NCBI GenBank assembly: GCA_007131285.1
Contig: SLQV01000005.1
Span: forward strand, 568-64,567
Direction of reading: 5' to 3'
Source: Myxococcales bacterium
GTDB lineage: Bacteria; Myxococcota_A; Polyangia; Polyangiales; SLQV01
DNA length: 64,000 nt
The translations under genes were made by a program, and so were the position numbers. The notes under the pieces were generated by a model that was given only the letters and a program-made list of their open reading frames with translations, was not told where the DNA came from and ran no database searches. Positions 6,175-63,843 of this stretch are shown piece by piece. Every line of letters starts with the position of its first letter. Position 1 is the first letter of the stretch.

Positions 6175-8160
6175 CTAGAGCGCCTTTTCGATAGCCGCTT
6201 TGAACTGCTCGAAGGGCTGCGCGCCTTGGAGCAGCTTGCCATTGATAAAGAATGACGGCGTGCCGATCTGCGCGCCTGCCTTGGTGACAGCATCTAGGTC
6301 AGCCTGGACACGCGCCTTGTGGGTATTCGCATCCAGGGCTTTTTTGAATGCGGCAAGGTTGATGCCGCTAATTTCACTTGCGTACTTCTCGAGGTCAGGA
6401 CGCGTGAGCGCACGCTGATTCTCAAAGAGCTTGTCGTGGTATGCCCAGAATGCTTTGTCTCCGCCCTGCTTATAAACCTCTTGCGCTGCCTCATGCGCAA
6501 GCTGTGCATTCTGGTGGAAAGGCAGCGGGTAGTGGCGCCAGATGATGGCAACCTTATTTCCGTAAGTCTTTTCGATTTCCGCCATTGTGGGGTTAACCCT
6601 CGAGCAGAATGGACACTCAAAATCGCTGAACTCCTGAATGATAACCTTGGCGTTGCGGTTGCCCTTCACCGGCGCATCCTTGGGAATATCGAAGTTATAG
6701 ACTTTGTCCGGATTGGGCGCAGCTTCCTTAGCCGGCGCGCTGGGACCCTCGATAAACTTCGGCTCTTTGGCGCCCTTGGCGACGATGCTGTCATAGACCT
6801 TGGCTTTAGCAGTGCCACTAGCCACAAGATCCTTAGCTTTCTTCAACTCCTCGTCGATGATCGCTTTGAAAGCCGGCAACGGTTGCGCGCCGCGCAGATT
6901 ACGACCGTTGATAAAGAACGAAGGCGTCCCGGAAGCGCCTAGCTTCTGCACAAGCTGCTGCTGCGCCTTGATCACATCCGTATGCTTGTCGCCATCGAGC
7001 GCAGCCTTGAACTTAGCCGCATTTAAGCCGATTTTGGCAGCAAACGCGTCGAGATTTTCTCGCGTAAGCTCACGCTGATTCTCAAAGAGAAGGTCATGCA
7101 TCTTCCAGAATTTATCGTTTCCGCCCTGCTCGTAAGCTTCGAGGGCAGCCTGCGCAGCAGGCGTCGCGTTCTTGTGGAAGGGCAGTGGATTATTGAACCA
7201 GACGATGCGGACATCGTCGCCGTACTCCTTGCGGACATCATCGAGCGTGGGCAGCACGCGCGAGCAGAACGGGCACTCAAAGTCGCTCACCTCAACGATG
7301 GTCACGAGCGCGTCTTTGGGTCCTTTGGAAGGCTCATTCCCCACGGGAACCGCATACACTGCGTTCGGGTCAGGCATTTTGCGCGCCTCTTCTTCTTTCG
7401 GCTTCTCCGGTTCAGCCCGCTCCTTTCCCGTCTTGGTCAGCTCCGCGGAGACTTTGCCTTTTGCGACGCCGCTAGCGATCAGCTTCTCGGCCCGACTGAT
7501 TTCGTCGTCGATTACCTGCTTGAAGGCCTCAAACGGCTGGGCACCCATGAGCTTGCGGCCATTGATAAAGAACGCCGGTGTACCTCGGGCGTCGAACCTT
7601 GCAGCCACTTCCTGGTCTGCTTTGATCTGATCGATGTACTTACCGCTCTCCAGCGCAGCCTTAAACTTTGCGACATCAAGACCGAGCTTTGCGGCGTAGC
7701 CTTCCAAGTCATCGTTATCGAGCTTTTGTTGGTTTTCGAAGAGCAAGTCATGGGCTGCCCAAAACTTGTCATTGCCGCCCTGATTAAAGGCTTCTAGCGC
7801 AAGCTGCGCTGCAGGCGTCGCTTTTTGGTGGAACGGCAGGGGGTTGTTGCGCCAGACAAAGCGCACTTTGTCGCCGTAGGTCTTCGTAATTTGCGCAATG
7901 GTCGGACCGACACGCTTACAGAACGGACACTCGAAGTCGCTCACTTCCACGATGGTCACAAGGGCGTCCTTAGGGCCCTTCGTCGGCTGCGCATCGGTGA
8001 CCGGCATGTTGTACCGTTCCACCTCACCTGATGCCTCAATTGCCGCAGACGAAGGCGCCGAAGTGCCCTCGTCCTTACTTGAACTGCCGATTAGGTTACC
8101 GATGGCAAGACCACCAATAAACAGCAAAAGTCCACCAAAAATCATGGGCCCTTTATTCAT
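6175..8160 (-). CDS. membrane-anchored thiol:disulfide oxidoreductase with three tandem DsbA-like thioredoxin domains
   Basis: N-terminal TM segment MIFGGLLLFIGGLAIGNLIG. The block SDFECPFC(K/S)RV...NNPLPFH...GGNDKFW..HDLLFENQ...GTP(A/S)FFINGR occurs three times, with CPFC at about aa 78, 296 and 516. Confidence 0.85.
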   Translation of the reverse strand: MNKGPMIFGGLLLFIGGLAIGNLIGSSSKDEGTSAPSSAAIEASGEVERYNMPVTDAQPTKGPKDALVTIVEVSDFECPFCKRVGPTIAQITKTYGDKVRFVWRNNPLPFHQKATPAAQLALEAFNQGGNDKFWAAHDLLFENQQKLDNDDLEGYAAKLGLDVAKFKAALESGKYIDQIKADQEVAARFDARGTPAFFINGRKLMGAQPFEAFKQVIDDEISRAEKLIASGVAKGKVSAELTKTGKERAEPEKPKEEEARKMPDPNAVYAVPVGNEPSKGPKDALVTIVEVSDFECPFCSRVLPTLDDVRKEYGDDVRIVWFNNPLPFHKNATPAAQAALEAYEQGGNDKFWKMHDLLFENQRELTRENLDAFAAKIGLNAAKFKAALDGDKHTDVIKAQQQLVQKLGASGTPSFFINGRNLRGAQPLPAFKAIIDEELKKAKDLVASGTAKAKVYDSIVAKGAKEPKFIEGPSAPAKEAAPNPDKVYNFDIPKDAPVKGNRNAKVIIQEFSDFECPFCSRVNPTMAEIEKTYGNKVAIIWRHYPLPFHQNAQLAHEAAQEVYKQGGDKAFWAYHDKLFENQRALTRPDLEKYASEISGINLAAFKKALDANTHKARVQADLDAVTKAGAQIGTPSFFINGKLLQGAQPFEQFKAAIEKAL

Positions 8161-18421: not shown

Positions 18422-19030
18422 TCACCCATTTCCTTCAGTGCTCGATGTACCGTCCAAGCGTATTTCGCTAGGCGAAGACGCCTCACCTAGGTCCCCGGCA
18501 GCTTCATCATCGCTCAGCCGCATCTGCAAATGGACCTCGAAGCGGTCCTTTTCGGCCTCAACAATCAGGTGACTTCGTTCAAGCAGAGCGATCTGAACCA
18601 GGCCGAGACCACCTACCTCGCGGCGCATCGCCTCACTGCTCGGATCCGCCAGCACAAGACGATCTTCGAGCAGCGCCTGCGCGCGCTTGGGGTCACTGAG
18701 TATCGCTATCCACTGCGCTAATGCGTCGCGGTCAACACCTTCCGGTATGGGGTTCGAAGCATAAATATTGATGTATCGTGCGTTGAGAAACTCTTCATAC
18801 CATATGCGCAGCGACGGCGGCTCCATGGCCGTCCAGTCGCTATGCCGACAGAGGTTGTCGAGAATTTCTCGAACGGAAAGCGCAACGTCATGGATGACAA
18901 AGATATCCCAGTGTGGTCCTCCAAAAATAACCCGGAGGGCACCCATAATCGACGGCGTCAGCTGCGGGTCAAAGTTGACCGGGTCGATATACATCTCGTA
19001 GTGAGGTTTGCCGGCCACTTCTACAAACAT
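18422..19030 (-). CDS. divergent GHKL-type (RsbW/SpoIIAB/SiaB-like) putative serine kinase / partner-switching component
   Basis: N-box-like VREILDNLCRHS (E-x3-N-x3-H), strand YINIYASNPIPEG where D-x-G-x-G normally sits (the Asp is not evident), and G2-like REVGGLGLVQIALLERSHLIVEAEKDRFEVHLQMRL. Starts 7 nt after the preceding gene. Confidence 0.45.
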   Translation of the reverse strand: MFVEVAGKPHYEMYIDPVNFDPQLTPSIMGALRVIFGGPHWDIFVIHDVALSVREILDNLCRHSDWTAMEPPSLRIWYEEFLNARYINIYASNPIPEGVDRDALAQWIAILSDPKRAQALLEDRLVLADPSSEAMRREVGGLGLVQIALLERSHLIVEAEKDRFEVHLQMRLSDDEAAGDLGEASSPSEIRLDGTSSTEGNG

Positions 19031-19535: not shown

Positions 19536-22281
19536 GACGCAGCGCTACCAAGAGCACATCATCCATGCGCTCGCGGTTGCCACGGTACACGTCTAGTGAG
19601 GATACTATGGTATCTAGGCCTTCCGCTAGACCGTCTTTAGCGAGTGCGCGTTTCCAGAAAGCATCGGTAATGTAGGCTGAACTTGGCTTTCCTTCCTCGT
19701 TGAGCTGGTTAAATACACCATCGGTAAAGACTAGAAAGATGTCGCCGGGCTCTAAGCTGACCGTCTTTTCGCTAAAGTTACTACCGTCCACCATGCCGAG
19801 AATGAAGTCATCCGGCTCCTCGCCGTGCACGATACCGGTCGACGTGTAGCGCAAAAAGGGCGCCTCGCCGCCCTGGGCGTATGTAACTCTTGCGCGATCC
19901 CCAACGCGCTCGAAATCCGCACAAAAAGCGCAACCGGTGAGGTCGAGATACTTGCGACAGGCGATGTCATTGAGCTGGCGCAACACCTCGCCGGGGGACG
20001 CCTGCGCGTGGTCAATCAAAGAGTACTCCACCCATAGAGCGGTCGCGCGCATGGCAGCCCCCATGCCGTGATCTGTGACGTCGAAGACGATGAGCCTGGT
20101 GCGCTCGGGTCCGAGAGGCACGACGTAGTAAAAATCACCACTCACCTCGGTTGTCGGACAATGCCGCACCGCCGCTTCGAAGCCCGATAGGGATGCGGTC
20201 GTGCCGAGCAGGGCCTCCTGAAAACGCCGGGCCTCAGCTAAGTCACGCTGAATGGCCCGCTGCTGAGCACTTACAAGACCGTGAGATTCGGCGAGCCTGT
20301 AGTGAGCCGCGAGCAAAGCGCGCGACTGCCTAAAGCGTAGGATTTGGTTGCGGATACGCAGTTGCATTTCTTCAAGCGGCGCGTTGCCCTTGATGAGATA
20401 GTCATCGGCACCAAATGCGAGTAGCTCTAGACGCGTACCCACATCGCCCTCGGCGGTCAGCATGATGATGGGGGTTTGCCCAAGTAACCCTTGCTCCCGA
20501 CGTATATTTTTGCACAGAGTTCCACCATCCATAGGTCCCATGCGCATATCCGAAAGAATGAGGTCGGGGCGAATGACCCGAGCTATCTGCAAGCCCTCCT
20601 CCCCATTGCGCGCGGTATAGACTTCGTACGCCTCACTGAGCTCGGACCGCAAGTGACGCCGCATATCCGCTGTGTCTTCGACGACCAAAATCTTAGCTCC
20701 GCGCGTCAACGCACTCTGCGATTCAGCCATCGACATATTGAGCAGGCGGAGCGATTCCGCATCACTATTGATGCGCGCAGGACTCAGGGCGCTTCCCTGG
20801 TCAAACTTCTCCAACGCATGCTCACCCCCGCTAAGGGGCAGTCGCTCTGTATCTTCGTCGTCGTATTCGAAGGCAGACTCGTAGCGGTCGGGTCGGGAGC
20901 CGATGTCCGCTTCTGAGACTTCATGTTCGGGCAAATGTGCCCGCCCTAGGGGGAACCACAGCGCAAAGGTGGAGCCTACGCCCGGCGAACTCTCGACACT
21001 GATTCGGCCGCCATGCCGCTGAACGTGTTCCTTGACGAGCGCAAGGCCAATCCCCATACCTTGGCGCACCTCTGAGGCGTTGACCTGCACGAAGCGGTCA
21101 AATATCGCCGCGTGCTTTTCGGGTGGAATCCCGCACCCCGTATCACTAACCGCTACGACCGCATAGCCATCCTCTACTCTTAGACTTATGGTGATGGCAC
21201 CGCTTGTCGTGAACTTAAAGGCATTGTTGACCAGGTTGACCACGGCGCCATCAAAGCGATCTGAGTCCACGTATACGAGGACCGGCTCGGTGGGCAAGGC
21301 CGCGCGCAGCTCGAGCCCTTTTTTCTCCACCATGGGGCGCGCCGCCAGCACCACCTGTCGCAGCACCTCAACCAAATCCCGCCGCGCATAGCGTGACGCC
21401 ATCGCCTTGTCGTTACGTCGCGAGAAATAGAAAAGTTTATCGAGCTGGTGCATCAAGCGCCGCTGATTGCTCAGCGCCACCTCCAGCGTTGCCACTACCC
21501 TGCGATCTTTAGCCTGCCGCAGGGCCGACTCAATCGGCCCCACAATCAACGCCAGCGGCGTCCTTAACTCGTGCGACACCTCCCCCAAAAAGCGGTCCTT
21601 ATACTGGTCCAGTGCCACCAGCTTTTCGTTCGCCTCCCGAATTTCTTGGTTTGCCTTTCGAAGCGTGAAGCCCGCGGCAAAGTCCCGTTTGGAGGCGACG
21701 TGCCGGTAGTGCGTCAAAACCAGTGATTGCAGGAACGAACCGATTAAGAGGAGCTGCAGCAAGACGGTAATTCCGTCGGTGCCGACCGGAAGCAATCCGA
21801 CCAATGCTGGCGCCAGGTAGATTAGGTAAACCGCGACACCGAACGACGCCGCCTTGAGCACCGACCAGTTCATTGAGATCACGGTGCTGTAAAATATAAA
21901 TGCAAACCCCCAGGCATAGGGCGAAGCGTAAGCATCGTGGGCCCACGCAAGCGTGGCCACAAAGGCACCGACCACGAGCATCAATCCTGCCCAGAGCGAC
22001 TCGCCCCAACGACGCACCACCACTGGCCTTCGATACGCGAGAACCAGTAGCGCAACCGACAAGAGCAGCGATATCCCGCGCAGCACCTGAACAGGCAGGA
22101 AGTGCTTGTGAGGTATTAGGTGGAAGTCGGCGAGAATAAACGGCGGTATGATGAAAAGCGGCTGCAGGACACCGAAACGTATCCCTCGAACGGTTTCTCT
22201 CGCCCTGTATTCCCGAAAAGAATCCGCAACCGGCTCGGTGCGCGCCGACTCATGGCGTTCTCTAAGCTCTCGCACCCCCAC
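19513..22281 (-). CDS. hybrid sensor: multi-TM input domain, HisKA/HATPase_c histidine kinase, REC receiver, PP2C/SpoIIE serine phosphatase
   Basis: About 5-6 hydrophobic helices in aa 35-195. H-box EVSHELRTPL (His about 237), N/G boxes VVNLVNNAFKFT, SDTGCGIP and GMGIGLALVKE. REC KILVVEDTADMRR...DLILSDMRMGPMDG...TPIIMLTA. PP2C GDFYYV, FDVTDHGMGAA, VFTDGV, DDVLLVAL. The GTG start overlaps the PKS stop. Confidence 0.85.
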   Translation of the reverse strand: MGVRELRERHESARTEPVADSFREYRARETVRGIRFGVLQPLFIIPPFILADFHLIPHKHFLPVQVLRGISLLLSVALLVLAYRRPVVVRRWGESLWAGLMLVVGAFVATLAWAHDAYASPYAWGFAFIFYSTVISMNWSVLKAASFGVAVYLIYLAPALVGLLPVGTDGITVLLQLLLIGSFLQSLVLTHYRHVASKRDFAAGFTLRKANQEIREANEKLVALDQYKDRFLGEVSHELRTPLALIVGPIESALRQAKDRRVVATLEVALSNQRRLMHQLDKLFYFSRRNDKAMASRYARRDLVEVLRQVVLAARPMVEKKGLELRAALPTEPVLVYVDSDRFDGAVVNLVNNAFKFTTSGAITISLRVEDGYAVVAVSDTGCGIPPEKHAAIFDRFVQVNASEVRQGMGIGLALVKEHVQRHGGRISVESSPGVGSTFALWFPLGRAHLPEHEVSEADIGSRPDRYESAFEYDDEDTERLPLSGGEHALEKFDQGSALSPARINSDAESLRLLNMSMAESQSALTRGAKILVVEDTADMRRHLRSELSEAYEVYTARNGEEGLQIARVIRPDLILSDMRMGPMDGGTLCKNIRREQGLLGQTPIIMLTAEGDVGTRLELLAFGADDYLIKGNAPLEEMQLRIRNQILRFRQSRALLAAHYRLAESHGLVSAQQRAIQRDLAEARRFQEALLGTTASLSGFEAAVRHCPTTEVSGDFYYVVPLGPERTRLIVFDVTDHGMGAAMRATALWVEYSLIDHAQASPGEVLRQLNDIACRKYLDLTGCAFCADFERVGDRARVTYAQGGEAPFLRYTSTGIVHGEEPDDFILGMVDGSNFSEKTVSLEPGDIFLVFTDGVFNQLNEEGKPSSAYITDAFWKRALAKDGLAEGLDTIVSSLDVYRGNRERMDDVLLVALRLDGRCPQ

Positions 22282-25200
22282 GCATCAACGGTACACCAAA
22301 CCCCACAAACTCAACACCGCTTTCTAACGACGGCTTAGCCCGGTCGAGCATCGCTTCGACAAGCCCCTCAGGAATCTCAGCTACCGCGATACCGGTCCCC
22401 GATGGTGCATACCAAACGGCGGTATGAGACCCTGTTGCGAGCTTTACACGCTCCCCGTTTCGCTTAACGCGAAAATAGTCAAACGAGAGAGCGCACGCGG
22501 ACGTGAACAGGGCATCGAGGGTCATCTCCACTTCGATGGTGGAGAATGGCATTGTTTCATTAAGGTGCTTCACCTTGACATCAGTACACAAGAACTCTCC
22601 TAGCGGCCGCACCTCTTCGAGGTATTCCCTTGAAACGCCATGAACGAACCAGTCGCGCGCCGCTTCCTGCCAGAAAATATAGTTAGAGAAATAAACGTTT
22701 CCAACAAGGTTGCTCTGAGCCAACCCCGTCTCGAAGGAATGCGTATGAAGCAGGGGTCCTCTCTTCGGACCCGGTTCCCTTTGAAACAACGCATCTCCTA
22801 GATGGATCTCGGCAGACGTGCGTCGTCGAGCCAGGCTGTCGCTGACCTTCGACTTCGGACCTCTCCCTCGGTTGTAGTCGAGGAAAAAGTCGGGCCACGG
22901 ATCTGGTCGCACTACGCCGTGGCTAATCACCTTAACCGCAGATACATCCATTAGACTCCTACCGAGCACACGGCGACGAGAGTGCCCGTTTCCATCGCGG
23001 GCAAACCAGTGCCAAACAAGCGTGCACTTTTCCGGGCTTACCGCGGTCACAAAAAAGTGTACCTCGATTAGGTCTGACGCCACCGGGTGATCGATGATTT
23101 CTGTCGAGAATTCATTGGTAACGCTCGTTAGCTCATTTGAGCCGAGCATGCTGTAGAGCTTCTCATGATAAGCAGCTGATTCAAGTCCGAATAGCTCCCT
23201 CACCTTGCCCGCCCAAGTCGCGAAAGTGCCAGCACGCACTCTACGAAGCAAACTCTGAATATCCACACAGCTGAGAGGAAAGCGATGAACAAAGATGTCT
23301 TCGCTCTGTGGACCCGCGCTCTCTCGATATTCAAAAGACGCGAGTCGCATCGGCCCGCCATCTATCGAATCCGGCGTGGACTTCGCTTCTAAGCCCACAG
23401 AATCACCTTGGTTTTCATCTGACGCGGACTGTCTCCGGAGAGCGACAGCGCCCGCGCTCATAGCTACGATGTAGTCAACCTGTCCAATCGACACCTGGAA
23501 AACGGCGTGATCAATCGGCTCGCCGGCATTAGTTTTCGCTCTGAACACTGCAGATTGATCGTCTGTCACTTGAAGCAAATGGAGTGGGGCATTACGGTCA
23601 CCTGACTCCTTGAATACACTTTCATGAATGGCCCAAAGCGCCGTACATGCGGCGTCCTTTTTCCACCCTTGTCTGATAAGACCACCGGCGAGGCTTAGCG
23701 TTTCTTCGCCCAAGAGTTGTCGCCACTGGCTCTCAGTCCTCGCGTTCACAGTTGCGAGATCGCAGCCTTGCGAACCTACACCGGCAACAACCAGGCACAA
23801 TAAGTTGTCCTGTGACAGTGACACTCCAAGTTCGGGGCTTGATACTAACGGCTTTCCTGTTTGCGCATCCCAAGATATTTCAGGGACATACTGCTCACCA
23901 TCTGGTGGGAGCGTGGCGCGTAATGACGCTACAGTATCAGCCAGTAGGCCAGCCTCGTGTTGATGACGGTCCTCCCGCGACATCGTCTGCAAACCAGGCA
24001 TAAATCGCAACCGAACGGCCGGCGGCTCTAGGCCGCGCGTGCGAGCAATGAAATCAATCTTAGACCGGAGAGCTCTCTCGTGAACAAGCCAGCCTGAGCG
24101 GATGTCACTGGCGCGGGGCAAACGCTCGTCGGTTGCGACTATTCGGACGGAACACGCCTCCATGGTTTCGGTGACGTCTCCGTTTTCATCACATACGGTA
24201 GCGCGCACGGTCGCGAGCTTGCCATCTATCCGGTCCACCACCTGCGTCCTCACTGCTCGTCGTCCGGAAACCGAAGCCGTGCGGTGCACCCTCAGGGTGT
24301 CTATTGCCATAGGAAGTGCTCTGCCTGGGGAAAGCGAAAGCTGTAAACACTGCAACTGCGCATCCCTCGCGAAAGGGTCCCCCAGTACCCAGCGACCTGA
24401 ACTAGACGCGGGAAACCGAGCGAACTTGTCATCGATCGAAAACAAGCCGCCCGCGTCGGTCAGGTCGTGAACGGCCGACACTCTTCGAAAAGTTGGACCA
24501 TGAAAGAGTAAAGTTCCGTAGACACCCTGTAATTCGAGATCCACCGGCAGCCGACGGGGGAGAACCAGCGGAGGCTGGTTCTCCGCGTACTCACCGGAAA
24601 GGCCAAGGGCAAACTTTGCCTTGAAACACACCGGTGGGTGTATCGTGCCATTGGCAGTGCTCAGGCTTGCGCCGAATCGAGTCACCGATTCAGCGCTAGT
24701 GGCTCTTACCGTAATCAGAATTGCGGTGCTGGCCTCGACTGAGACGTCGACTGGACGAAAGAACTCAGCATTCTCGACCGTAAGTGGTGTGAGCTGGACT
24801 CGGCCAGCCACTAGGGCGACGGCTTGGGCCATGGCTTCGAGGCCGAAGACGGCGGGAAGTAGGTAGCGGCCTTCGAAGCAGTGGTCGCGGATAAAGTCGT
24901 CGTGCTCAACGCTGAGCGTCGTGCGAACGATGGCTTCCACGCCGGGTTCACAGCAGATTACTTCGTCGATGAACCTAAGGTGTTCCTTAGAGCCTGGGCC
25001 GGTCGCGGGCAGCGCAGGTTCCAGTGAGCGCCAGGTGTCAAGGCCGCCGAGACGAGAGGTTACGATAACCTGCTGCGCACTTGGGCGGACATCGACGAGA
25101 GCGAGAAAGCCTTCAACGCCCTGGTCTGGACTTAGCGCCGCGGTGCCTGTTCGCGCCAGCGCTTCGACGCTGCCGAGACGATGGCCCATGCCGACGTCGC

Positions 25201-28200
25201 TCCAGACGCTGTAAGCGAGGGTGCTTACTTCAACCTGCGGATGCCTTGCGGCGAAATGCGCGAGGCTGCGGTCTAGCGAGTCATTGGCGAAAGCGTACCA
25301 GGCATTGCCGGGCATGCCTGTTACGCCGATGACCGACGTCAAACCGATGATGAGGTCCGGGAGCTGCTGGGTTTGCCGGCGTTCCAGCGCTTCGAGCAGC
25401 GCGAGGGCGCCGTGGAGCTTGGGGGCGACTTCAGCGCGGGCGCTCTCGGCGTTGACCAGCTCGGCGCGACGCACCTGATTGAGCCCCGCACCATGCACGA
25501 CGGCACGAATGTGGCCGAGGCGGACGTGCACCTGAGCCACTAGCGCATCGACCGCGGCGGGATCTGCGAGGTCGACACTGAAGTATTCACACCGGATGCC
25601 TTGTGCGCGCAGCGCATCAAGCTCGGCTGCGACGCGCGCGTGAGGACTGCGCCCGACGAGCGCGAGGGTTACGCCATCTCGGGACGCCCAGGCCGCGGCG
25701 CAGGCGCCCGTAATCCCCTTGGCGCCGCCGGTGACCAAAACCACGTCGCCCGAACCCAGCCTAACGCGGCGCGGAGGCGACTGTTCCGGTTGCAGTAGCC
25801 GATGGCCGGTGATCCAGCGCTCGCCGCTGGTATCGTAGCGGACGTGGTCGAAGGCGATGGGCGTCCCGAATTCAGCGCCGAGAAAGCCGGCACACTCGCC
25901 GGACGGACACGCCGCGGGCAGCTCGAGGACACGAACGCGCAGGCTTGGGCGTTCGTGATGCAAGCTGGCTGCGAAGGCCGCGAGACCGCAGACGAAACCG
26001 TCGTGGGCGGTCGCCTCGCCGACCTCTATGAATGCGAGTGCAAGATCCGGTCGCGCGGCGGGCAGCGCTTGCGCAAGCGCTGCGAGTTGAGCCACGCTCT
26101 CCTCGAACGAAAGCGCTCCGGCGGTAGGCGTGTAAAAGACACAGAGTGCGGCAACGCTCGCGTCTAGCGCGCTGCGCAGCGAAGCATCAAGGCGGAGCAC
26201 CTCGCTCTGACCACCGAGCCTGCCGAGCACGCCGCTAAATCGCTCGGCGTCCGGGCCGGATGCCGAGCCCAGGGCCGCGACACGCACGCGCTGACCCGCC
26301 GGCCAATCCGTGCGGGCGGGCTTCCCGAGGGCATCGACGCGCCACTCTTGCGCGAAGTGCCGAACCCATGGCGCGCCGGCGGCCTCCTGCGTCTGGCGCG
26401 CTGGGAGCGCGCCTATTCTCGCCTTCGCGGGCACCGCGGCGCGCACCTCACTTGCGCGTTCGCTGGAGAAACGCGGTGCGTCGGCGGACGACGTCACAGG
26501 CGCCACCCGGCTAATGAGGCGCTCCCTAGGGGAGGCTGCAGGCGCAGGAAGCGCGTCAGCCGCAGGTCGTGCTTCTGAACCAGCGGGCGTGCGCTGCGCA
26601 GAAGTAGCCTCCACTCGCGCCGGCGCACGCGGTGCGTCGCTGGCGCGAGTACCGGTCTGCGCGTTCAGTGCTTCTGCTAACTCGCCGAGGCTCGCATTTG
26701 CAAAGCGGGTCGCGTCCAGCGCCGCTACATCAAGCGCGCACGCCTGAGCAAGCTCACCGACAAGCTCCGCGACCTTGATGGAATCGAGGTTGAGGTCGTC
26801 GAGTAGGCGCAAACCTGGGTCTAGGGATTCCTTCGGGTAGCCGGTGCGCTGCGCAACGCGCTCGCACACCTCCGTCAATACGTCGGGTCCTGAGATCGGC
26901 GACGCAAGTGTCTCGATCATTTCCGGCCCTTCCGAGAGCGCGATACGCGCACCGCTGGAGTCGGTCGCTCGCACGTCGGGGGCCGGCATCGCTAACGTAT
27001 TCGCTGGCTGCGGCGCACCCACGGTAGCCACCCCAAACGCATCAGCCCGCACACCGGGGTAGCGCTCGGCTGAAGTCGATGCGCCCTCGGGGCTAACGAC
27101 AGGCACGGCGCGGCTCACCACCGCCTCCGGACCGCGCGGCGGCGCAGCGGGGAGTTCCGCAGAGAGCAGCACGGCTAGTTCCTCCAGAGAAGCGTTAGCA
27201 ACACGCATGGCATCCGGCGCCGGCTCGATTTGAAAATGCGCGGCGGCCTCCGCGGACAGCTCGGCCGTCTTGATAGAATCAAGATTGAGATCGTCCAGGA
27301 GGCGCAGATCCGGCGTCAGTGAATCCGGCGGGAACCCGGTGCGCTGCGAGACTCGGTCTTGAATGTAGGCAAAGACCTCTGCTTGGCGCCCGGGCGCCAG
27401 CGAAGACGACGCAGCGAGCGACTCGCCTGCGTCTGGAACCAACTGTAAGCCCGTTGTCGCGACTGACTGAAGCGCGTCGGAGGACTCCGGCGCTGCGGCG
27501 GGCGCGCTAACTTGACTGCGCGAGATTTCCACCTCTGCCTCGGGCGTTGACTCGAAGATGCTTGCAGGCTGCGGCAGGGCCCCCGCAACTTCGGGCGCTG
27601 ACTCGACGCGAAGCTGGGCCGCAGTCGATTGGTCGGCCGACCATTCCGCACCAAGCTCCTGCCTGCTGGCTCGATTAAGGACCGGCGCGACCGCTCCTCT
27701 TGTAATTGTTGCTGGCGCGGCCGGGCCGAAGCCCCGCGAACGCGCGTCGACGGCCACAACCTGCGTGACACTCTCCAAGAACTCCGCGCGCTCACTGGCG
27801 TAAGCGGCAAACTGCTCTGGCGTTAGACCAGAAGGCCGGCGAATCGGGAGCCACGCGTCGTGTTGAGCAGCGGCACTGAGCTGCGCCGGCCGAGCGACAC
27901 GCGGCTCAGGAGAGGCGGGCAAACCCTCGCAGTAGTTTGCGATGAACGCGCGCGCCTGCGCGGGGACGAACGCACGCACGGCGCGGCCCGCGAAAAGGTT
28001 TTGCAACCGCAGCGGCGCTCCGGTTGCAAAAAGAACCGCCACCAACTGGTGGAACTCGAGACGACGCTCAGCCCGCGCTTCAACCGGGAATACGAACGGG
28101 CGCGCGTTTGCCGAACGCGCAGCAAACTGGTCGCCAAGAAGCCCAGAGAGCGTCCGCCCAGGGCCCAGCTCGATCACCAAGTCACAGCCCTCCGCCAGCG

Positions 28201-30919
28201 AACGACCCACCCGCATAAAGTCCACCGGACGAAAAATCTGAGTGCCCACGTGCTCGCGCAGTGCGATCCTACCTTGTTTGACCGCTTCTTCGGGAGATGA
28301 GGCATCGGCCATGCTTGTTACCCAAGGAATCGCCAGCGAGGCACTCTCTCGAATTCGCGGGTCCCGCGCGACAGCGCGGCCGGCGGGCTCGACGAACTTG
28401 GAATGGAAGGCTCCCGAAACCCCTAGCCGACGACCAGCGACTTTCTTCTGGCGAGCCACGCTTTCAAGCTGCTTAATCGCGGTCTCATCTCCAGAAACGA
28501 TGGTTTGGCGGGGGCTATTGATGTTCGCGATGACGAGATAGCCTCTGACCTGCTCGATGAGGAGCTGAGCGGTGGCGGCATCGCAACCAAGTCCCAACAT
28601 TGCACCCGTCTGACACTCCGCCATGGCCTGACCGCGAATGGCAGCGAGTTGGATGACTTCTTTATCGTCGAGGGCGCCGGCCACGTAGAGGGCGGCGAGC
28701 TCGCCGAGGGAATGACCCGCCACGATGCAAGGCTCAAGGCCAAGCTCATCGCGCAGGTATTTGCACCACAGCACCGTGCTGAAGATGACGACTGGCTCAG
28801 TGTGGGCGGGCTTGGCAAGCCGCGTCGCCCAGGCTTTCTCAGCAGCTTCTGTGCGCACGTATTCGGCAGCTGGATAGAGCAATGCGGATACGGGCGCGCT
28901 CCCGACTTCGGCTAGCCAGGCGTCGGCCTGCGCCAGGAAAGCCTGTGCCCAAGGTAGGCGCGCCAACAGGTGCGCGGCGCAGCCGATGAACTGCGCCCCC
29001 TGTCCGGGAAAGACCCAGCCCACCCGGGGGGCTTGCGGTGCCGTATTGTTCGCGGCCGCCAGGCTTAGCCAGATGCGGCGGTCGCTGGAATGCCACAGCG
29101 GGAACGAACCTGATGACGCCTCCCCCGGTTGCGCGGCATCCGGCTCTTCAAGCTTGGCAAGCAAGCGCTCGAGGGCATCCGCCAAACCCAGCGGGTCTTC
29201 CGCGACGACCGCGGCCCGGTGCGGCGCGGCGTGCCCAAGGGCTTCCGCGCGCTGGCAGCTTTGGGCACTCAGGTCAGGCATTTCACCGACGGCCATGCCG
29301 CGACAGTGCAGCAGCAATTCGGCGGCAGCTTGGACGAGTTCCGCGCGCGTGGCAGCTGCCAAAGGAAACACTTCACTGTCTTGATAGGAAGCCAGCAAGG
29401 CGTTTTCGCTCAGCGTTGGCGTGAGTCGGTTGTCGGGCTTGGGGCCGGATTCAAGTGTAATATGGCTATTGATGCCGCCGAAACCCATCGCCGAAACGCC
29501 AGCGCGCACATTCGCTTCTGGACTACGCGCCTCGCCGCGCAGCAGCGGGTAGAGAACGCGGGCGTCTTGTTCAAAGACGGGACTTGGCTGCGCACAGCCA
29601 ACCGTCGGCGGCACGATGCGCCGATTGACCGCCATCACAGCCTTAATCAGGCCACCGATGCCGGCGGCCGCTTTGGTATGGCCCACCAAGGACTTAAAGG
29701 AGGTGATACCTATCGCCGGGGCGGCGGTGGCGGGTGCCGGCTCGGCTTCCGCCGCGAACCAGTCGTGGGCTAGCTGTATGCCCTTAAGCTCGATGGCGTC
29801 GCCAACGGGGGTTCCGGTTCCGTGTCCCTCAATGAAGTCCAGTGCCTGGGGTGGGTATCCGGCGCGGCGGTACGCACGTTCGAGCGCCAGTGCCTGGCCA
29901 CGGACTGTCGGGGCAGTGATGCCGCCCTTGCCGTCCGATGAGATACCCCAGCCGCATAGCGTGGCGTAGATGGCGTCACCGTCGCGCAGGGCGTCGGCGT
30001 AGCGCTTTAGGATAACGATGCCACAGCCCTCGCCAGGGATGAAACCCGATGCACGTTTATCGTAAACGCGCATTTCCGTGGGCGTGAGCGCCCCAACCTT
30101 CGAAAAGCCGATAAGCTCAAAGGTATCGATGCTGATGTCGACGCCGCCCGCTAGGGCGACATCAATATCGCCGCGAACCAAGGCATCGGCCGCCGAAATC
30201 GTCGCTAAGAGCGACGACGAACACGCACCATCCACAACGTAGCCGCCGCCGTGGAGGTCGAGGTAGTTACAGACGCGGCCCGGGATGGTGTTTGACAGGT
30301 TGCCCGCGAGGGTATCTTCGTCAAAGGCCGGGAACACCGATTTGTACTGCGCTTCCGTCTCTTCCAGCAAGCCGGCGAGCGTGCCAGCGTCGAGGCCCTG
30401 GGCGACTGCGGCAGCTGTGATCGCCCGCGCGACAAAGGGCCAGCGCAGGCGCATCGACAATGCGCGGCACTGTTCACCGGTCAGCGTGTTGCCCAGGACG
30501 GCTGCGGTGCGATCTTTTGGCAGCTCGCGGCCCCCCGGACCGTAGCCCGCATCTGCCACGGCCTGCAGCGCCACCTCCAGCGCCAGCCAGTGGGCGATGT
30601 CGGTGACCTCCACTGTACTTTTAGGTATGCGGCGCTTAGCCCAATCGAAAACGAAACCGTCGATGAGCCCCGCGCGGGTGCTGTAGGTTTTGTCGGGCGT
30701 TTTTCGGTCTGGATCGTGGTAGTCAGTGAGGCGCAGGCGACAGTCCGGCATACGGCGGAAACCCTGGCGTCGTGACAGGATATTCTCCCAAAGCGCGACA
30801 GGGTTATCCGCACCAGGGTAGCGGCAACCGATGCCGATAACCGCGATGCGTGCGTCCGCAGCCACAGCACGGATCGACGCGCCAGGCGTGGGCGACTGAG
30901 GGGGATGGTGGATGGTCAT
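22262..30919 (-). CDS. iterative type I polyketide synthase, enediyne-PksE-like: KS-AT-ACP-ACP-KR-DH-PPTase plus C-terminal double hotdog (4HBT-like) thioesterase region
   Basis: Approximate domain positions: KS at about 29450-30850 (DGACSSS, EGHGTGT, GHTKAAAG). AT at about 28130-29026 (GQGAQ, GHSLGE). ACP1 at about 27155-27382 (LDDLNLDSIKTAEL). ACP2 at about 26660-26887 (LDDLNLDSIKVAEL). KR at about 25040-26392 (VLVTGGAKGITG). DH at about 24110-24997 (HCFEGRYLLP = HxxxGxxxxP). PPTase-like at about 23435-24052 (GCDLATV, WAIHESVFKESG). Hotdog-like halves at about 22370-23347 (SNLVGNVYFSNYIFWQEAARDWF). Confidence 0.9.
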   Translation of the reverse strand: MTIHHPPQSPTPGASIRAVAADARIAVIGIGCRYPGADNPVALWENILSRRQGFRRMPDCRLRLTDYHDPDRKTPDKTYSTRAGLIDGFVFDWAKRRIPKSTVEVTDIAHWLALEVALQAVADAGYGPGGRELPKDRTAAVLGNTLTGEQCRALSMRLRWPFVARAITAAAVAQGLDAGTLAGLLEETEAQYKSVFPAFDEDTLAGNLSNTIPGRVCNYLDLHGGGYVVDGACSSSLLATISAADALVRGDIDVALAGGVDISIDTFELIGFSKVGALTPTEMRVYDKRASGFIPGEGCGIVILKRYADALRDGDAIYATLCGWGISSDGKGGITAPTVRGQALALERAYRRAGYPPQALDFIEGHGTGTPVGDAIELKGIQLAHDWFAAEAEPAPATAAPAIGITSFKSLVGHTKAAAGIGGLIKAVMAVNRRIVPPTVGCAQPSPVFEQDARVLYPLLRGEARSPEANVRAGVSAMGFGGINSHITLESGPKPDNRLTPTLSENALLASYQDSEVFPLAAATRAELVQAAAELLLHCRGMAVGEMPDLSAQSCQRAEALGHAAPHRAAVVAEDPLGLADALERLLAKLEEPDAAQPGEASSGSFPLWHSSDRRIWLSLAAANNTAPQAPRVGWVFPGQGAQFIGCAAHLLARLPWAQAFLAQADAWLAEVGSAPVSALLYPAAEYVRTEAAEKAWATRLAKPAHTEPVVIFSTVLWCKYLRDELGLEPCIVAGHSLGELAALYVAGALDDKEVIQLAAIRGQAMAECQTGAMLGLGCDAATAQLLIEQVRGYLVIANINSPRQTIVSGDETAIKQLESVARQKKVAGRRLGVSGAFHSKFVEPAGRAVARDPRIRESASLAIPWVTSMADASSPEEAVKQGRIALREHVGTQIFRPVDFMRVGRSLAEGCDLVIELGPGRTLSGLLGDQFAARSANARPFVFPVEARAERRLEFHQLVAVLFATGAPLRLQNLFAGRAVRAFVPAQARAFIANYCEGLPASPEPRVARPAQLSAAAQHDAWLPIRRPSGLTPEQFAAYASERAEFLESVTQVVAVDARSRGFGPAAPATITRGAVAPVLNRASRQELGAEWSADQSTAAQLRVESAPEVAGALPQPASIFESTPEAEVEISRSQVSAPAAAPESSDALQSVATTGLQLVPDAGESLAASSSLAPGRQAEVFAYIQDRVSQRTGFPPDSLTPDLRLLDDLNLDSIKTAELSAEAAAHFQIEPAPDAMRVANASLEELAVLLSAELPAAPPRGPEAVVSRAVPVVSPEGASTSAERYPGVRADAFGVATVGAPQPANTLAMPAPDVRATDSSGARIALSEGPEMIETLASPISGPDVLTEVCERVAQRTGYPKESLDPGLRLLDDLNLDSIKVAELVGELAQACALDVAALDATRFANASLGELAEALNAQTGTRASDAPRAPARVEATSAQRTPAGSEARPAADALPAPAASPRERLISRVAPVTSSADAPRFSSERASEVRAAVPAKARIGALPARQTQEAAGAPWVRHFAQEWRVDALGKPARTDWPAGQRVRVAALGSASGPDAERFSGVLGRLGGQSEVLRLDASLRSALDASVAALCVFYTPTAGALSFEESVAQLAALAQALPAARPDLALAFIEVGEATAHDGFVCGLAAFAASLHHERPSLRVRVLELPAACPSGECAGFLGAEFGTPIAFDHVRYDTSGERWITGHRLLQPEQSPPRRVRLGSGDVVLVTGGAKGITGACAAAWASRDGVTLALVGRSPHARVAAELDALRAQGIRCEYFSVDLADPAAVDALVAQVHVRLGHIRAVVHGAGLNQVRRAELVNAESARAEVAPKLHGALALLEALERRQTQQLPDLIIGLTSVIGVTGMPGNAWYAFANDSLDRSLAHFAARHPQVEVSTLAYSVWSDVGMGHRLGSVEALARTGTAALSPDQGVEGFLALVDVRPSAQQVIVTSRLGGLDTWRSLEPALPATGPGSKEHLRFIDEVICCEPGVEAIVRTTLSVEHDDFIRDHCFEGRYLLPAVFGLEAMAQAVALVAGRVQLTPLTVENAEFFRPVDVSVEASTAILITVRATSAESVTRFGASLSTANGTIHPPVCFKAKFALGLSGEYAENQPPLVLPRRLPVDLELQGVYGTLLFHGPTFRRVSAVHDLTDAGGLFSIDDKFARFPASSSGRWVLGDPFARDAQLQCLQLSLSPGRALPMAIDTLRVHRTASVSGRRAVRTQVVDRIDGKLATVRATVCDENGDVTETMEACSVRIVATDERLPRASDIRSGWLVHERALRSKIDFIARTRGLEPPAVRLRFMPGLQTMSREDRHQHEAGLLADTVASLRATLPPDGEQYVPEISWDAQTGKPLVSSPELGVSLSQDNLLCLVVAGVGSQGCDLATVNARTESQWRQLLGEETLSLAGGLIRQGWKKDAACTALWAIHESVFKESGDRNAPLHLLQVTDDQSAVFRAKTNAGEPIDHAVFQVSIGQVDYIVAMSAGAVALRRQSASDENQGDSVGLEAKSTPDSIDGGPMRLASFEYRESAGPQSEDIFVHRFPLSCVDIQSLLRRVRAGTFATWAGKVRELFGLESAAYHEKLYSMLGSNELTSVTNEFSTEIIDHPVASDLIEVHFFVTAVSPEKCTLVWHWFARDGNGHSRRRVLGRSLMDVSAVKVISHGVVRPDPWPDFFLDYNRGRGPKSKVSDSLARRRTSAEIHLGDALFQREPGPKRGPLLHTHSFETGLAQSNLVGNVYFSNYIFWQEAARDWFVHGVSREYLEEVRPLGEFLCTDVKVKHLNETMPFSTIEVEMTLDALFTSACALSFDYFRVKRNGERVKLATGSHTAVWYAPSGTGIAVAEIPEGLVEAMLDRAKPSLESGVEFVGFGVPLMRGGARA

Positions 30920-31217
30920 CTCGCCGGGTTCCCGAAGCAGCTAGACATGTAAATGCGACAGCCACCGCTGACCGTCGCAAAGCGTTTACCTCGAATATGC
31001 CCCGAACGCGAATGTGCTCTTCGGCTGCCATGACCCTAGACCTGGGCCATGCTCCATAAAGCCAAATGAAAACAAAGACGAACGTCTTTCACGTTCCCAA
31101 ATCGTCACGTTTATTTCACCCAATCGCAACCTTTGGACTCTATTCGACCGCAGGCGAACCGGGCCGTTAAGGAACCGGGCGACGATCTAAGCCGCGCGCG
31201 GCTTAGCCTAATACCAG

Positions 31218-31291
<74 letters not shown>

Positions 31292-62427: not shown

Positions 62428-63843
62428 CTAACTTAGCTCGGATACTAAGGCGGAGGCGGCGGCGCGGCCGCTGCGAATCGCCTCAGGAATGCCGACACCG
62501 CGGTAGCTGTTACCTGCGAGGGCGAAGTGGGGCTGGTGGCGAGCCGCATCTTCAATGCGGGCGACGAGTGCTTGATGCCCTAGATGGTAACGCGGCATTG
62601 CACGCACGTAACGGTCGACGCGATGCAGTCGTGGCTCGCCGCGAATGCCGAGGATGAGGCGCAGCTCGGCAAGCAGGGATGACACCAGCTCGGCTTCGGG
62701 GCGGGCTGCCTGGCCTTCGCTGCCGCTGCCACCGACGAATGCCCGCAGGAGCACCATCCCGATGGGTGCACGGCCCGGCCACTTCACGCTTGAGAAGGTG
62801 GCGGCGCGCAAGCTAAGGCCTTCGCGCTTCGGAACCACGAAGCCGTAGGCATCCAGCGGATGGGCGATTTGTTCGCGCTCGAAGGCGAAGGTCACCACCG
62901 CCGATGAGCCAAAAGGAATGGCGCCGAGTTCGCAAGCGAGCTCGGGGGTGGCCTCGCGAAGCACACGGGCGGCTCGCGCGGCCGGCAGTGCGCAGACCAC
63001 TGCGTCTGCCCGCAAGGACCGCGCGCACTCAACGCCCTGCGCTCCCCGGGAGGTCACGTTGACCTGCCAACCGCGGCCATACCGGCCGATAGACTCCACC
63101 TTCTGGCCGAGCTGAATGCGCTCGGGACCTATGGCGTCCGCCAGTGCCGCAACGAGCTCGCCGCAGCCGCCTTGAAACGAGATAAAGAGGCCGTAACGCG
63201 CGCCAGCGGCCCGAGCACCGGCACCACGCTGCAAACGCCGTACGCCGCCGATAAGCGACTGGCCCCTCTCGGCGAGGGCCGCGTACTTCGGCAAGGCGGC
63301 GTGCATGCTTAACAGCCGCGGATCCGCGCCGTAAATGCCCCCAGCCAAGGGCTCGGCGAGGTAGTCCAATACCTCCTGGCCAAGGCGTCCCTGCACCAAG
63401 GTCTGAAGAGAAAGCTCGCCCGACGGTTGTAGTGGCGCCAGGAGCGGTTCGAGTAGCGCGCGAGCTTTGCCACGGGCACTTACGAGCGGCGTCCTGAGGA
63501 AGGCCTTAAGATTGCCGGGAGCGACGAGCGCAAAGCCATCAGGAACAGGGTGCAGGCGTTTCGAGCGCAAAATAAAAGCGCCGCTTACCGAGGCAGACGT
63601 GCGCATAATGTGTGGCTCAAGGCCGAGTTCCTGCGCGAGCTTTAGGGCATGGTCCGGCTGGGTAAGCATGGCATCCGGACCACGTTCAATGAGAAAGCCG
63701 TCCTCAGTATGCTCGGTGGCGATGGCGCCACCGACCCGGTTTCCCGCTTCGAGGACGACCACAGAGGCATCGGGTACCCGCCGCAAGACCTCGTAGCCGG
63801 CACAAAGGCCGCTGATGCCTCCTCCAAGGACGATGACCCGCAT
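62428..63843 (-). CDS. hemY: protoporphyrinogen/coproporphyrinogen III oxidase (HemY-type FAD oxidase)
   Basis: MRVIVLGGGISGLCAGYEV dinucleotide-binding fold, C-terminal LAGNSYRGVGIPEAIRSG. Sits next to hemE. Confidence 0.85.
   Translation of the reverse strand: MRVIVLGGGISGLCAGYEVLRRVPDASVVVLEAGNRVGGAIATEHTEDGFLIERGPDAMLTQPDHALKLAQELGLEPHIMRTSASVSGAFILRSKRLHPVPDGFALVAPGNLKAFLRTPLVSARGKARALLEPLLAPLQPSGELSLQTLVQGRLGQEVLDYLAEPLAGGIYGADPRLLSMHAALPKYAALAERGQSLIGGVRRLQRGAGARAAGARYGLFISFQGGCGELVAALADAIGPERIQLGQKVESIGRYGRGWQVNVTSRGAQGVECARSLRADAVVCALPAARAARVLREATPELACELGAIPFGSSAVVTFAFEREQIAHPLDAYGFVVPKREGLSLRAATFSSVKWPGRAPIGMVLLRAFVGGSGSEGQAARPEAELVSSLLAELRLILGIRGEPRLHRVDRYVRAMPRYHLGHQALVARIEDAARHQPHFALAGNSYRGVGIPEAIRSGRAAASALVSELS

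Follow-up and report, generated by a model that had tools for sequence, protein, structure and literature searches.

A PksE-type polyketide synthase with a built-in double-hotdog thioesterase represents a widespread family and is a probable stand-alone polyene synthase

Enediyne polyketide synthases (PKSs) serve as markers of enediyne antitumour antibiotic pathways. A 64,000-nucleotide (64-kb) stretch of a Myxococcales genome (assembly GCA_007131285.1, contig SLQV01000005.1, positions 568 to 64,567; hereafter the window) encodes a PKS that resembles these enzymes, and it raises the question of what such a protein does where no enediyne gene cassette lies beside it. The original prediction for this locus, made from the DNA letters alone, had described an orphan PksE-like iterative PKS with tandem acyl carrier proteins and a fused double-hotdog thioesterase, and had proposed a self-priming, self-releasing synthase of a heptaene-like polyene under direct signalling control. 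Here, we consider it likely that the window PKS is a complete, stand-alone, highly reducing iterative PKS of the PksE type, which produces a linear conjugated polyene and sets it free independently of any enediyne pathway. It is not a one-off: the protein exemplifies a variant of the PksE family that is widespread and uncharacterised.

We analysed the translated gene together with its Pfam matches and the positions of its motifs, and the coordinates, domain order and motifs that had been predicted for it were correct. The open reading frame (ORF) starts with ATG, encodes 2885 amino acids (aa) and contains no internal stop codon (Table 1). Pfam returned a ketosynthase (KS), an acyltransferase (AT), two PP-binding domains of the acyl carrier protein (ACP) type, a ketoreductase (KR) and a dehydratase (DH), in the order KS-AT-ACP-ACP-KR-DH, and these are followed by an Sfp-type phosphopantetheinyl transferase (PPTase)-like domain, X, and by two tandem hotdog domains, H1 and H2. 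The order KS-AT-ACP-KR-DH-PPTase of the enediyne PKSs (PKSEs) is present within this one polypeptide, with the second ACP and the C-terminal double hotdog as extras. The catalytic motifs of the KS, AT, ACPs, KR and DH, as read from the translation, are all intact, and no enoyl reductase (ER) domain was detected in the PKS by Pfam. A protein identical to the window PKS exists in the protein database (P0002). Third-position GC content within the ORF is 0.67-0.74 from the KS through the KR, 0.62 in the DH and 0.52-0.61 in the PPTase-like and hotdog domains, and it is also low (0.55-0.60) in two small ORFs downstream; the step within the ORF could reflect a separate history of the C-terminal part.

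The affinity of the protein to PksE enzymes is clearest in its KS. In a tblastn search of 72,556 plasmids, scored by gapped identity, the window KS was 51.9% identical to the KS of SgcE, encoded on the C-1027 plasmid SGLP1, and 54% identical to that of S. clavuligerus PksE, the gene of which adjoins DUF1702, VCBS and UnbU genes. Identities to actinobacterial PKSs overall were 50-54%, the highest plasmid identity was to one cyanobacterial relative (60.6%), and the remaining matches to type I PKSs and non-ribosomal peptide synthetase-PKS hybrids ranged from 30 to 37%. Comparison with SgcE by BLASTP gave 41% identity across 1035 aa of the KS-AT region and 30% across KR-DH. A neighbour-joining tree of KS sequences (200 bootstraps) placed the window protein and its relatives in one clade (200/200), which was sister to three cassette-linked actinobacterial PksE proteins (200/200), the window protein not being among the latter; a Sinorhizobium meliloti protein was basal and modular KSs formed the outgroup. 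Within the clade, the window protein grouped with P0090, its nearest neighbour, and P0003 with a support of 125/200. The PksE-type KS that had been predicted is supported by these identities and by the position of the family as a sister clade.

The carrier proteins behave similarly. Both predicted tandem ACPs are present and of the CalE8 type, and the top PDB match of ACP2 is the ACP of CalE8 itself (2L9F, 7e-9; runner-up 8.5e-4). The PDB matches of the AT are malonyl-CoA:ACP transacylases, with the AT of DynE8 at 6.5e-19; because FabD enzymes score above the latter, we rejected the AT as a domain diagnostic of PksE.

Homology of X to the C-terminal domain of SgcE and to Sfp, as the original prediction had supposed from the motifs GCDLA (aa 2385-2389) and WAIHESVFK (aa 2429-2437), emerged only with a family profile, and X as a single sequence had no significant match in Pfam or the PDB; the Pfam ACPS match in it is weak (E 0.08), and the family member P0023 carries PF01648. 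The X family profile matched the C-terminal PPTase domains of SgcE, S. clavuligerus PksE and NBC_00441 PksE at 1e-24 to 4e-26. Against the PDB it found Sfp (1QR0) first, at 1.1e-5, and after that only AcpS enzymes and human AASDHPPT. In the alignment, GKP (2355-2357), Asp2387, Glu2433 and Lys2437 fall on the Sfp motifs, whose conserved residues besides GKP are His90, Asp107, Glu109, Glu151 and Lys155 (Sfp numbering). X is on this basis the homologue of the self-priming PPTase of SgcE, and it may be weakened in the window protein.

The last ~340 aa of the PKS comprise the two hotdog domains. All six PDB matches of H2 (phmmer, E 4e-13 to 1e-9) are annotated thioesterases (TEs), and they consist only of CalE7 (3.7e-13), DynE7 (2.4e-12), SgcE10 (4I4J; 2.5e-11) and relatives, the TEs that act with PKSEs. 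Furthermore, a tblastn search with S. clavuligerus E10 found a sole match in the window, at 22325-22741 (5e-16), and the H2 family profile matched the same E10 at 1.9e-31; Pfam gave a weak 4HBT_2 match over H2 (aa 2738-2856). H2 retains the equivalents of CalE7 Asn19, Asn23, Tyr25, Tyr29, Trp32, Gln33 and Arg37, and of these Asn19, Tyr29 and Arg37 (CalE7 numbering) reportedly have the catalytic roles described by Kotaka et al. in 2009. H1 as a single sequence had no Pfam or PDB match, and a profile made of 121 H1 segments only matched all 121 H2 segments (best 7.5e-21) as well as S. clavuligerus E10 (4e-18). H1 is thus a diverged copy of the hotdog. It keeps the Trp, Arg2574 and the Glu, while Asn, Asn, Tyr and Tyr have become Ser, Arg, Arg and Phe, so that of the three catalytic equivalents H1 retains the Arg alone and H2 all three.

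Modelled by AlphaFold2 together with 40 homologues, aa 2270-2885 gave a mean predicted local distance difference test score (pLDDT) of 84.6 and formed three folded domains and a disordered linker, with pLDDT values of ~85-97 in both hotdog halves and ~90 in X; H1 has hotdog secondary structure. In this model H1 and H2 are packed as a pseudo-dimeric double hotdog, and its best Foldseek matches are double-hotdog acyl-ACP and acyl-CoA TEs, aligned over ~300 columns with template modelling (TM) scores of 0.58-0.78. Together, the E7/E10-type H2, the profile homology of H1 and the modelled fold uphold the fused double hotdog of the original prediction, and the C-terminal 600 aa, for which a lack of PPTase and hotdog support had been named as a possible refutation, are accounted for by X, H1 and H2.

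We then turn to the surroundings of the gene. The claim that the enediyne cassette is lacking held across the 64-kb window: tblastn searches with SgcE2-E5 and with E3-E5 of S. clavuligerus were blank for E2-E5 homologues, with a best E of 0.25. E4 and E5 were absent from all 80 related loci, inspected with flanks of up to 10 kb, and an E3-like gene occurred in one of the 80, in a cyanobacterium (L029). Pfam annotation of the scanned window ORFs of at least 200 aa detected no pfaB-D-like or acyltransferase gene near the PKS, and the other ORFs in this set belong to housekeeping or general metabolism, among them UvrD, DsbA-like, DnaJ-like, SLT, ProRS, PurC, PurB, PheST, LepA, fumarase and thiolase genes. 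The flanks are those originally described, namely tRNA-Arg(CCT) on one side of the PKS and a hybrid sensor kinase on the other.

A search for relatives revealed that the fused-thioesterase architecture is the majority form of a large family and not peculiar to the window locus. The 120 best full-length homologues are 2200-3200 aa long and come from Thermoactinomycetaceae, cyanobacteria, Desulfobacterota, Myxococcota, Derxia, Dyella, KSB1 and others. By local profile annotation, 92 of these 120 closest homologues have the architecture KS-AT-ACPn-KR-DH-X-H1-H2; the number of ACPs across the family varies from 1 to 5, and one family protein, P0090, has X and no hotdogs. At least 309 loci in GTDB species representatives encode the double hotdog, in more than 10 phyla, which also include Planctomycetota, Acidobacteriota, Bdellovibrionota, Actinomycetota and Omnitrophota. 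When 1.84 billion representative proteins were searched exhaustively with HMMER, 350 clusters (50% identity) matched at E≤1e-30, and in nearly all of the best 150 of these 350 the match lies at the protein C-terminus. An earlier impression that the C-terminal region is unique to the window, which came from a single match in a word-index search with the C-terminal 596 aa, was overturned by the full-length, genome and HMMER searches. The family is a widespread sister of the enediyne PKSs that typically stands alone amid housekeeping genes; in Laceyella and Derxia, for example, the PKS lies alone amid unrelated genes. Our literature searches found no functional study of the fused-thioesterase family. 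A metagenome survey has reported a non-actinobacterial clade of 'enediyne' KS domains, which it termed unexplored (PMC10308959).

Some family members depart from the common form. An N-terminal extension of 116-149 aa, mostly annotated as a PilZ (cyclic di-GMP-binding) domain, is present in some of them (proteins P0007, P0022, P0034, P0035, P0046, P0063, P0082 and P0097; loci L051 and L055), and most of these members also carry a fused C-terminal domain of ~500 aa resembling flavin adenine dinucleotide (FAD)-dependent amine oxidases and phytoene desaturases. The fusion of a second-messenger receptor to a PKS is unusual. At four cyanobacterial loci (L008, on a plasmid of Gloeothece verrucosa PCC 7822, L029, L045 and L093) one to three tryptophan-halogenase-like genes follow the PKS, and such loci may make halogenated polyene derivatives. 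At L029 the E3-like gene, of the DUF1702 family, also follows the PKS, and the Gloeothece locus has its PKS in two parts, KS-AT and the rest, with a carotenoid oxygenase gene nearby. The basal protein of the KS tree is encoded by an unannotated 1919-aa ORF on pSymA of S. meliloti strain T073 (L009:8857-14613), which combines KS-AT-ACP-KR-DH with a PPTase-like domain. The KS of this protein shares 43.7% identity with that of the window PKS, and its branch lies below those of the enediyne PKSs and the fused family alike. At the P0090 locus (L013; GCA_964456305.1), the PKS is followed by a 492-aa unknown protein that has no match to the hotdog profiles and, further downstream, by a MASE8 hybrid kinase and a receiver-HATPase protein.

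The sensor kinase that had been noted beside the PKS is a hybrid protein that, beyond what was predicted, also contains a receiver and a SpoIIE/PP2C phosphatase domain (Pfam, 1.5e-26). Its gene lies directly downstream of the PKS on the same strand, and in its longest form the ORF overlaps the PKS stop codon by 20 nucleotides. The N-terminus of the kinase has about 5-6 hydrophobic segments between aa 30 and 190, and no known sensor family matched it. Full-length orthologues with 34-35% identity over ~900 aa follow the PKS at the loci of the two closest relatives (L003 and L012), and the kinase core is 86% identical in the Myxococcales metagenome-assembled genome (MAG) CSSed162cmB_584 (L014). 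Including these, an orthologous histidine kinase-receiver-PP2C gene lies directly downstream of the PKS at L003, L012, L014, L015, L017, L018, L019, L037 and L047. Across the family, the next gene on the same strand encodes a histidine kinase or receiver in 18 of 74 loci versus 42 of 648 other flanking ORFs, an enrichment with an odds ratio of 4.6 (Fisher p=6e-6). At the level of gene order the linkage between PKS and kinase is real: Myxococcota relatives preserve it, and over the family as a whole it is statistically enriched.

Two small ORFs, o165 and o202, continue this unit and follow the kinase in the same order at L018, L019, L037 and L047, loci of Polyangiales or deltaproteobacterial MAGs in which they lie at ~13.7-14.7 kb. 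The motifs E..DN and GG.GL are invariant among the homologues of o202, whose orthologues have sub-threshold DUF6272 and HATPase_c_2 matches and whose profile had a single PDB match, 6KKO (2.6e-5), which we take to be a domain of HsbR. o165 had no Pfam, PDB or fold match. Because a predicted helix in it begins with an invariant Ser, it was considered as a STAS protein, a reading that is not supported: there was no Pfam or PDB profile match, a single-sequence model was of low confidence (pLDDT 65.8) and Foldseek gave no match at E≤1e-3. The receiver and SpoIIE/PP2C domains of the kinase gene, along with the GHKL motifs of o202, recall HptB-HsbR-HsbA partner switching, in which a receiver-PP2C protein acts with a GHKL serine kinase and a STAS antagonist; the window system differs in that its PP2C domain is fused to a membrane histidine kinase and in that it has no identified STAS protein, o165 being without a fold match. 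To our knowledge, partner-switching modules have not been described as linked to a PKS. Because the PKS, the histidine kinase-receiver-PP2C protein and the two small proteins form a conserved Myxococcota unit, the arrangement hints at a connection between polyene synthesis and a signalling circuit, in which the part played by the kinase module and the direction of its regulatory link with the PKS are presumptive.

Table 1. Coordinates of the PKS, its domains and neighbouring features in the window
Feature	Position	Strand	Support
PksE-like iterative type I PKS gene, fused PPTase-like domain and double-hotdog thioesterase	22262-30919	-	ORF list, translation
Ketosynthase, aa 23-441 (Cys233, His366, His414)	29597-30853	-	PF00109, PF02801
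Acyltransferase, aa 635-934 (GHSLGE, Ser737; GAFHS)	28118-29017	-	PF00698 (635-853), TIGR00128 fabD
ACP1, aa ~1183-1258 (LDSIK, Ser1215)	27146-27373	-	PF00550 in two stretches; pairwise alignment with ACP2
ACP2, aa ~1347-1420 (LDSIK, Ser1380)	26660-26881	-	PF00550; CalE8 ACP match
Ketoreductase, structural and catalytic halves, aa ~1520-1950 (TGGAKGIT 1730-1737; Tyr1875)	25070-26362	-	PF08659, PF00106 at about 1726-1906; aligns to SgcE KR
PKS-type dehydratase, aa ~1975-2265 (His2013, Asp2186)	24125-24997	-	PF21089, PF14765 (1978-2260)
Sfp-type PPTase-like domain X, aa ~2300-2478	23486-24022	-	Family profile versus PksE C-termini and PDB
Hotdog 1 (H1), aa ~2526-2684, diverged partner half	22868-23344	-	H1 family profile, residue table, model
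Hotdog 2 (H2), aa ~2709-2864, E7/E10-type thioesterase (Asn2737, Tyr2747, Arg2755)	22328-22795	-	PDB phmmer, tblastn, residue table
Hybrid membrane histidine kinase with receiver and SpoIIE/PP2C phosphatase, 922 aa	19513-22281	-	Pfam HisKA, HATPase_c, Response_reg, SpoIIE
Conserved small ORF o165, 165 aa	19038-19535	-	Homologues after kinase in L018, L019, L037, L047, E 1e-12 to 4e-16
Conserved small ORF o202, 202 aa, GHKL-type (anti-sigma-factor-like) kinase candidate	18422-19030	-	Homologues in L018, L019, L037, L047, L012, L003
tRNA-Arg(CCT), upstream boundary of PKS unit	31217-31291	-	ARAGORN
Flavin amine-oxidase family gene, window edge	62428-63843	-	Family match

The window also holds two tRNA genes, and a terminator-like hairpin (31096-31080) lies between tRNA-Arg(CCT) and the PKS start; a wider promoter and terminator scan gave counts near the shuffled expectation and was discarded as uninformative. 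The amine-oxidase gene at the window edge was considered as a relative of the FAD domain found in some PKS relatives and dismissed, as the two share only the Rossmann motif. At 6175-8160, on the minus strand, a 661-aa protein contains three tandem DsbA/thioredoxin-like domains.

How might the window PKS work? In the proposed mechanism, the AT would load malonyl units onto the two tandem CalE8-type ACPs, and the single KS/KR/DH set would be used repeatedly to build an ACP-bound chain, which is expected to be a linear conjugated polyene thioester because there is no ER. The C-terminal pseudo-dimeric double hotdog, in which H2 keeps the catalytic residues of CalE7, DynE7 and SgcE10, would then free the chain, and the Sfp-type domain between the DH and the thioesterase is a candidate self-priming PPTase homologue, perhaps weakened here. 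The precedent for the product comes from the enediyne enzymes themselves: a PKSE combined with any enediyne TE gives 1,3,5,7,9,11,13-pentadecaheptaene, by iteration to 3-hydroxyhexadecahexaenoyl-S-PKSE and TE-dependent release (PMC9992847). By analogy with that PKSE and TE pair, the window enzyme may make a polyene hydrocarbon such as 1,3,5,7,9,11,13-pentadecaheptaene, or a polyenoic or 3-hydroxy acid; its iteration, and the identity, chain length and possible decarboxylation of its product, are what we infer from this likeness. Since the catalytic set is the same, an ER is lacking and an E7/E10-type TE is fused, autonomous polyene synthesis and release is the most likely activity.

Comparison with known systems sharpens this picture. 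The window PKS shares with the PKSEs (SgcE, CalE8, DynE8 and NcsE) the core domain order, a KS of 52-54% identity, the CalE8-type ACP and a homologous PPTase domain, and it is expected to share their iterative, ER-less chemistry leading to conjugated polyenes. In contrast to the PKSEs, it has two ACPs instead of one, a fused instead of a discrete TE and ~900 aa of extra sequence, and it sits in a sister clade, in a housekeeping context with neither an E3/E4/E5 cassette nor tailoring genes, and in a Myxococcota-like host. H2 aligns with CalE7, DynE7 and SgcE10 over its whole length and keeps Asn19, Tyr29 and Arg37 as well as the NLVGNVY..NY..WQ motif; however, those enzymes are discrete homo-oligomers of ~150 aa, whereas the window has a tandem fused pair at the end of the PKS, the first copy of which has lost most catalytic residues. 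FatA/FatB, bacterial acyl-ACP TEs and ACOT7/ACOT12 are the best structural matches of the modelled H1-H2 (TM up to 0.78), a comparison by fold, with only 9-14% sequence identity, whereas the sequence affinity of H2 is to E7/E10. Finally, PfaA and HglE are related in their KS-AT and resemble the window PKS in having a KR and tandem ACPs that bear an LDSIK-type motif, but the window PKS, unlike them, carries its PKS-type DH, PPTase and thioesterase on a single chain and, unlike PfaA, stays under the family cut-off and has no PfaB/C/D partners in sight.

Several observations weigh against a fully autonomous, self-priming and regulated polyene synthase. Gln2370 occupies the position of Sfp His90, which is His in more than 90% of the relatives, in SgcE and in Sfp, and Ala2389 occupies that of Sfp Glu109, a position that is variable family-wide. 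Furthermore, 28 of the 120 relatives have no PPTase-like domain altogether, so self-priming is not guaranteed; of the self-priming PPTase originally proposed, the domain is present, and its activity in the window PKS is uncertain. Because H1 has lost four E7-type residues, the double hotdog probably has just one working active site. The kinase could be linked for reasons other than regulation of the PKS. In addition, the KS tree, in which the family lies beside PksE, contained no PfaA sequence, and the exclusion of polyunsaturated fatty acid (PUFA) synthases rests on the NCBIfam score and on architecture.

These points bear on the rival explanations to different degrees. PUFA synthases matter for the view that the enzyme is a PUFA-synthase-like secondary-lipid enzyme, whose polyenoyl chain, instead of leaving as a free hydrocarbon, is passed on to lipids of the membrane or envelope to serve as a pigment or antioxidant, and whose hotdog is either a hydrolase giving a free acid that is later esterified or an editing enzyme. 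Tandem ACPs, from 1 to 5 in the family, are typical of PUFA synthases, the context is one of housekeeping genes, the distribution is broad and includes anaerobes, the fold of H1-H2 is closest to acyl-ACP TEs of fatty-acid metabolism, and PfaA is among the best NCBIfam matches. However, against the PfaA model TIGR02813 the window PKS scored 476 bits, level with SgcE (456 bits) and far under the cut-off of 1010, so that by this score the grouping with PUFA synthases that would have spoken against a PksE-type enzyme was not seen. The protein also lacks an ER and a FabA-type isomerising dehydratase, no PfaB/C/D or acyltransferase gene is nearby, and H2 is specifically of the E7/E10 type; such TEs, acting with PKSEs, give the decarboxylated heptaene (PMC9992847). 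We regard this explanation as unlikely overall: a PUFA-like lipid role is possible as the fate of the product and is not supported for the class of the enzyme.

It is very improbable, in turn, that the protein is the genuine core synthase of an enediyne pathway, with its E3/E4/E5 and tailoring genes at another place in the genome and an enediyne-type metabolite as the product. The high KS identity to SgcE, the E7/E10-type thioesterase, the label 'enediyne polyketide synthase' that IMG gives to many relatives and the E3-like DUF1702 gene beside the PKS of cyanobacterial L029 would all fit it. Yet the 64-kb window contains no E2-E5 homologue, the neighbours are housekeeping genes, and the family clade is separate, with full support, from all sampled cassette-linked PksE proteins; enediynes are, according to one survey, known only from Actinobacteria and ascidian extracts (PMC10308959). 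A pathway with a distant cassette is made unlikely by the family-wide absence of E4 and E5, within 10 kb at all 80 loci. That the gene is a decaying or silent relic without current function seems to us scarcely credible. The substitutions at two PPTase positions and in H1, together with a third-position GC that is lower over the C-terminal 600 aa than before them, could be taken for signs of decay, but the 8.6-kb ORF is uninterrupted, the catalytic motifs of the KS, AT, ACPs, KR, DH and H2 are all intact, the same protein has been assembled from independent samples, and many genomes preserve both the architecture and the genes downstream. An autonomous polyene synthase of the PksE type thus remains our preferred reading of the window PKS.

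A more far-reaching proposal, which combines the family-wide observations and which we put forward tentatively and with considerable doubt, is that the enzyme is an old, physiologically integrated synthase of polyene hydrocarbons or polyenoic acids that is gated by signals and is not an antibiotic enzyme. Control of its activity or of its expression would run through the N-terminal PilZ domain in some members, or through the histidine kinase-receiver-PP2C protein and its GHKL-like partner in Myxococcota. The membrane-soluble product would function in signalling, redox buffering or photoprotection, and the intramembrane kinase encoded next door might sense it. The PKSE and discrete TE would be an offshoot of this enzyme, the actinobacterial pair having arisen by the splitting off of the thioesterase.

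What the family means for the reading of 'enediyne' genes is more immediate. The same type of enzyme, with a built-in release enzyme, spans more than 10 bacterial phyla without enediyne-forming genes, and therefore 'enediyne KS' matches in non-actinobacterial genomes and in marine-sediment metagenomes are probably simple polyene synthases and not new enediynes. A one-gene route to a conjugated polyene would also be useful for biocatalysis and hydrocarbon production. Finally, the fused family offers a scenario for the origin of the enediyne PKS and TE pair, and its recurrent association with sensor kinases, PP2C phosphatases and PilZ domains suggests that polyenes have a physiological role in the bacteria that encode it.

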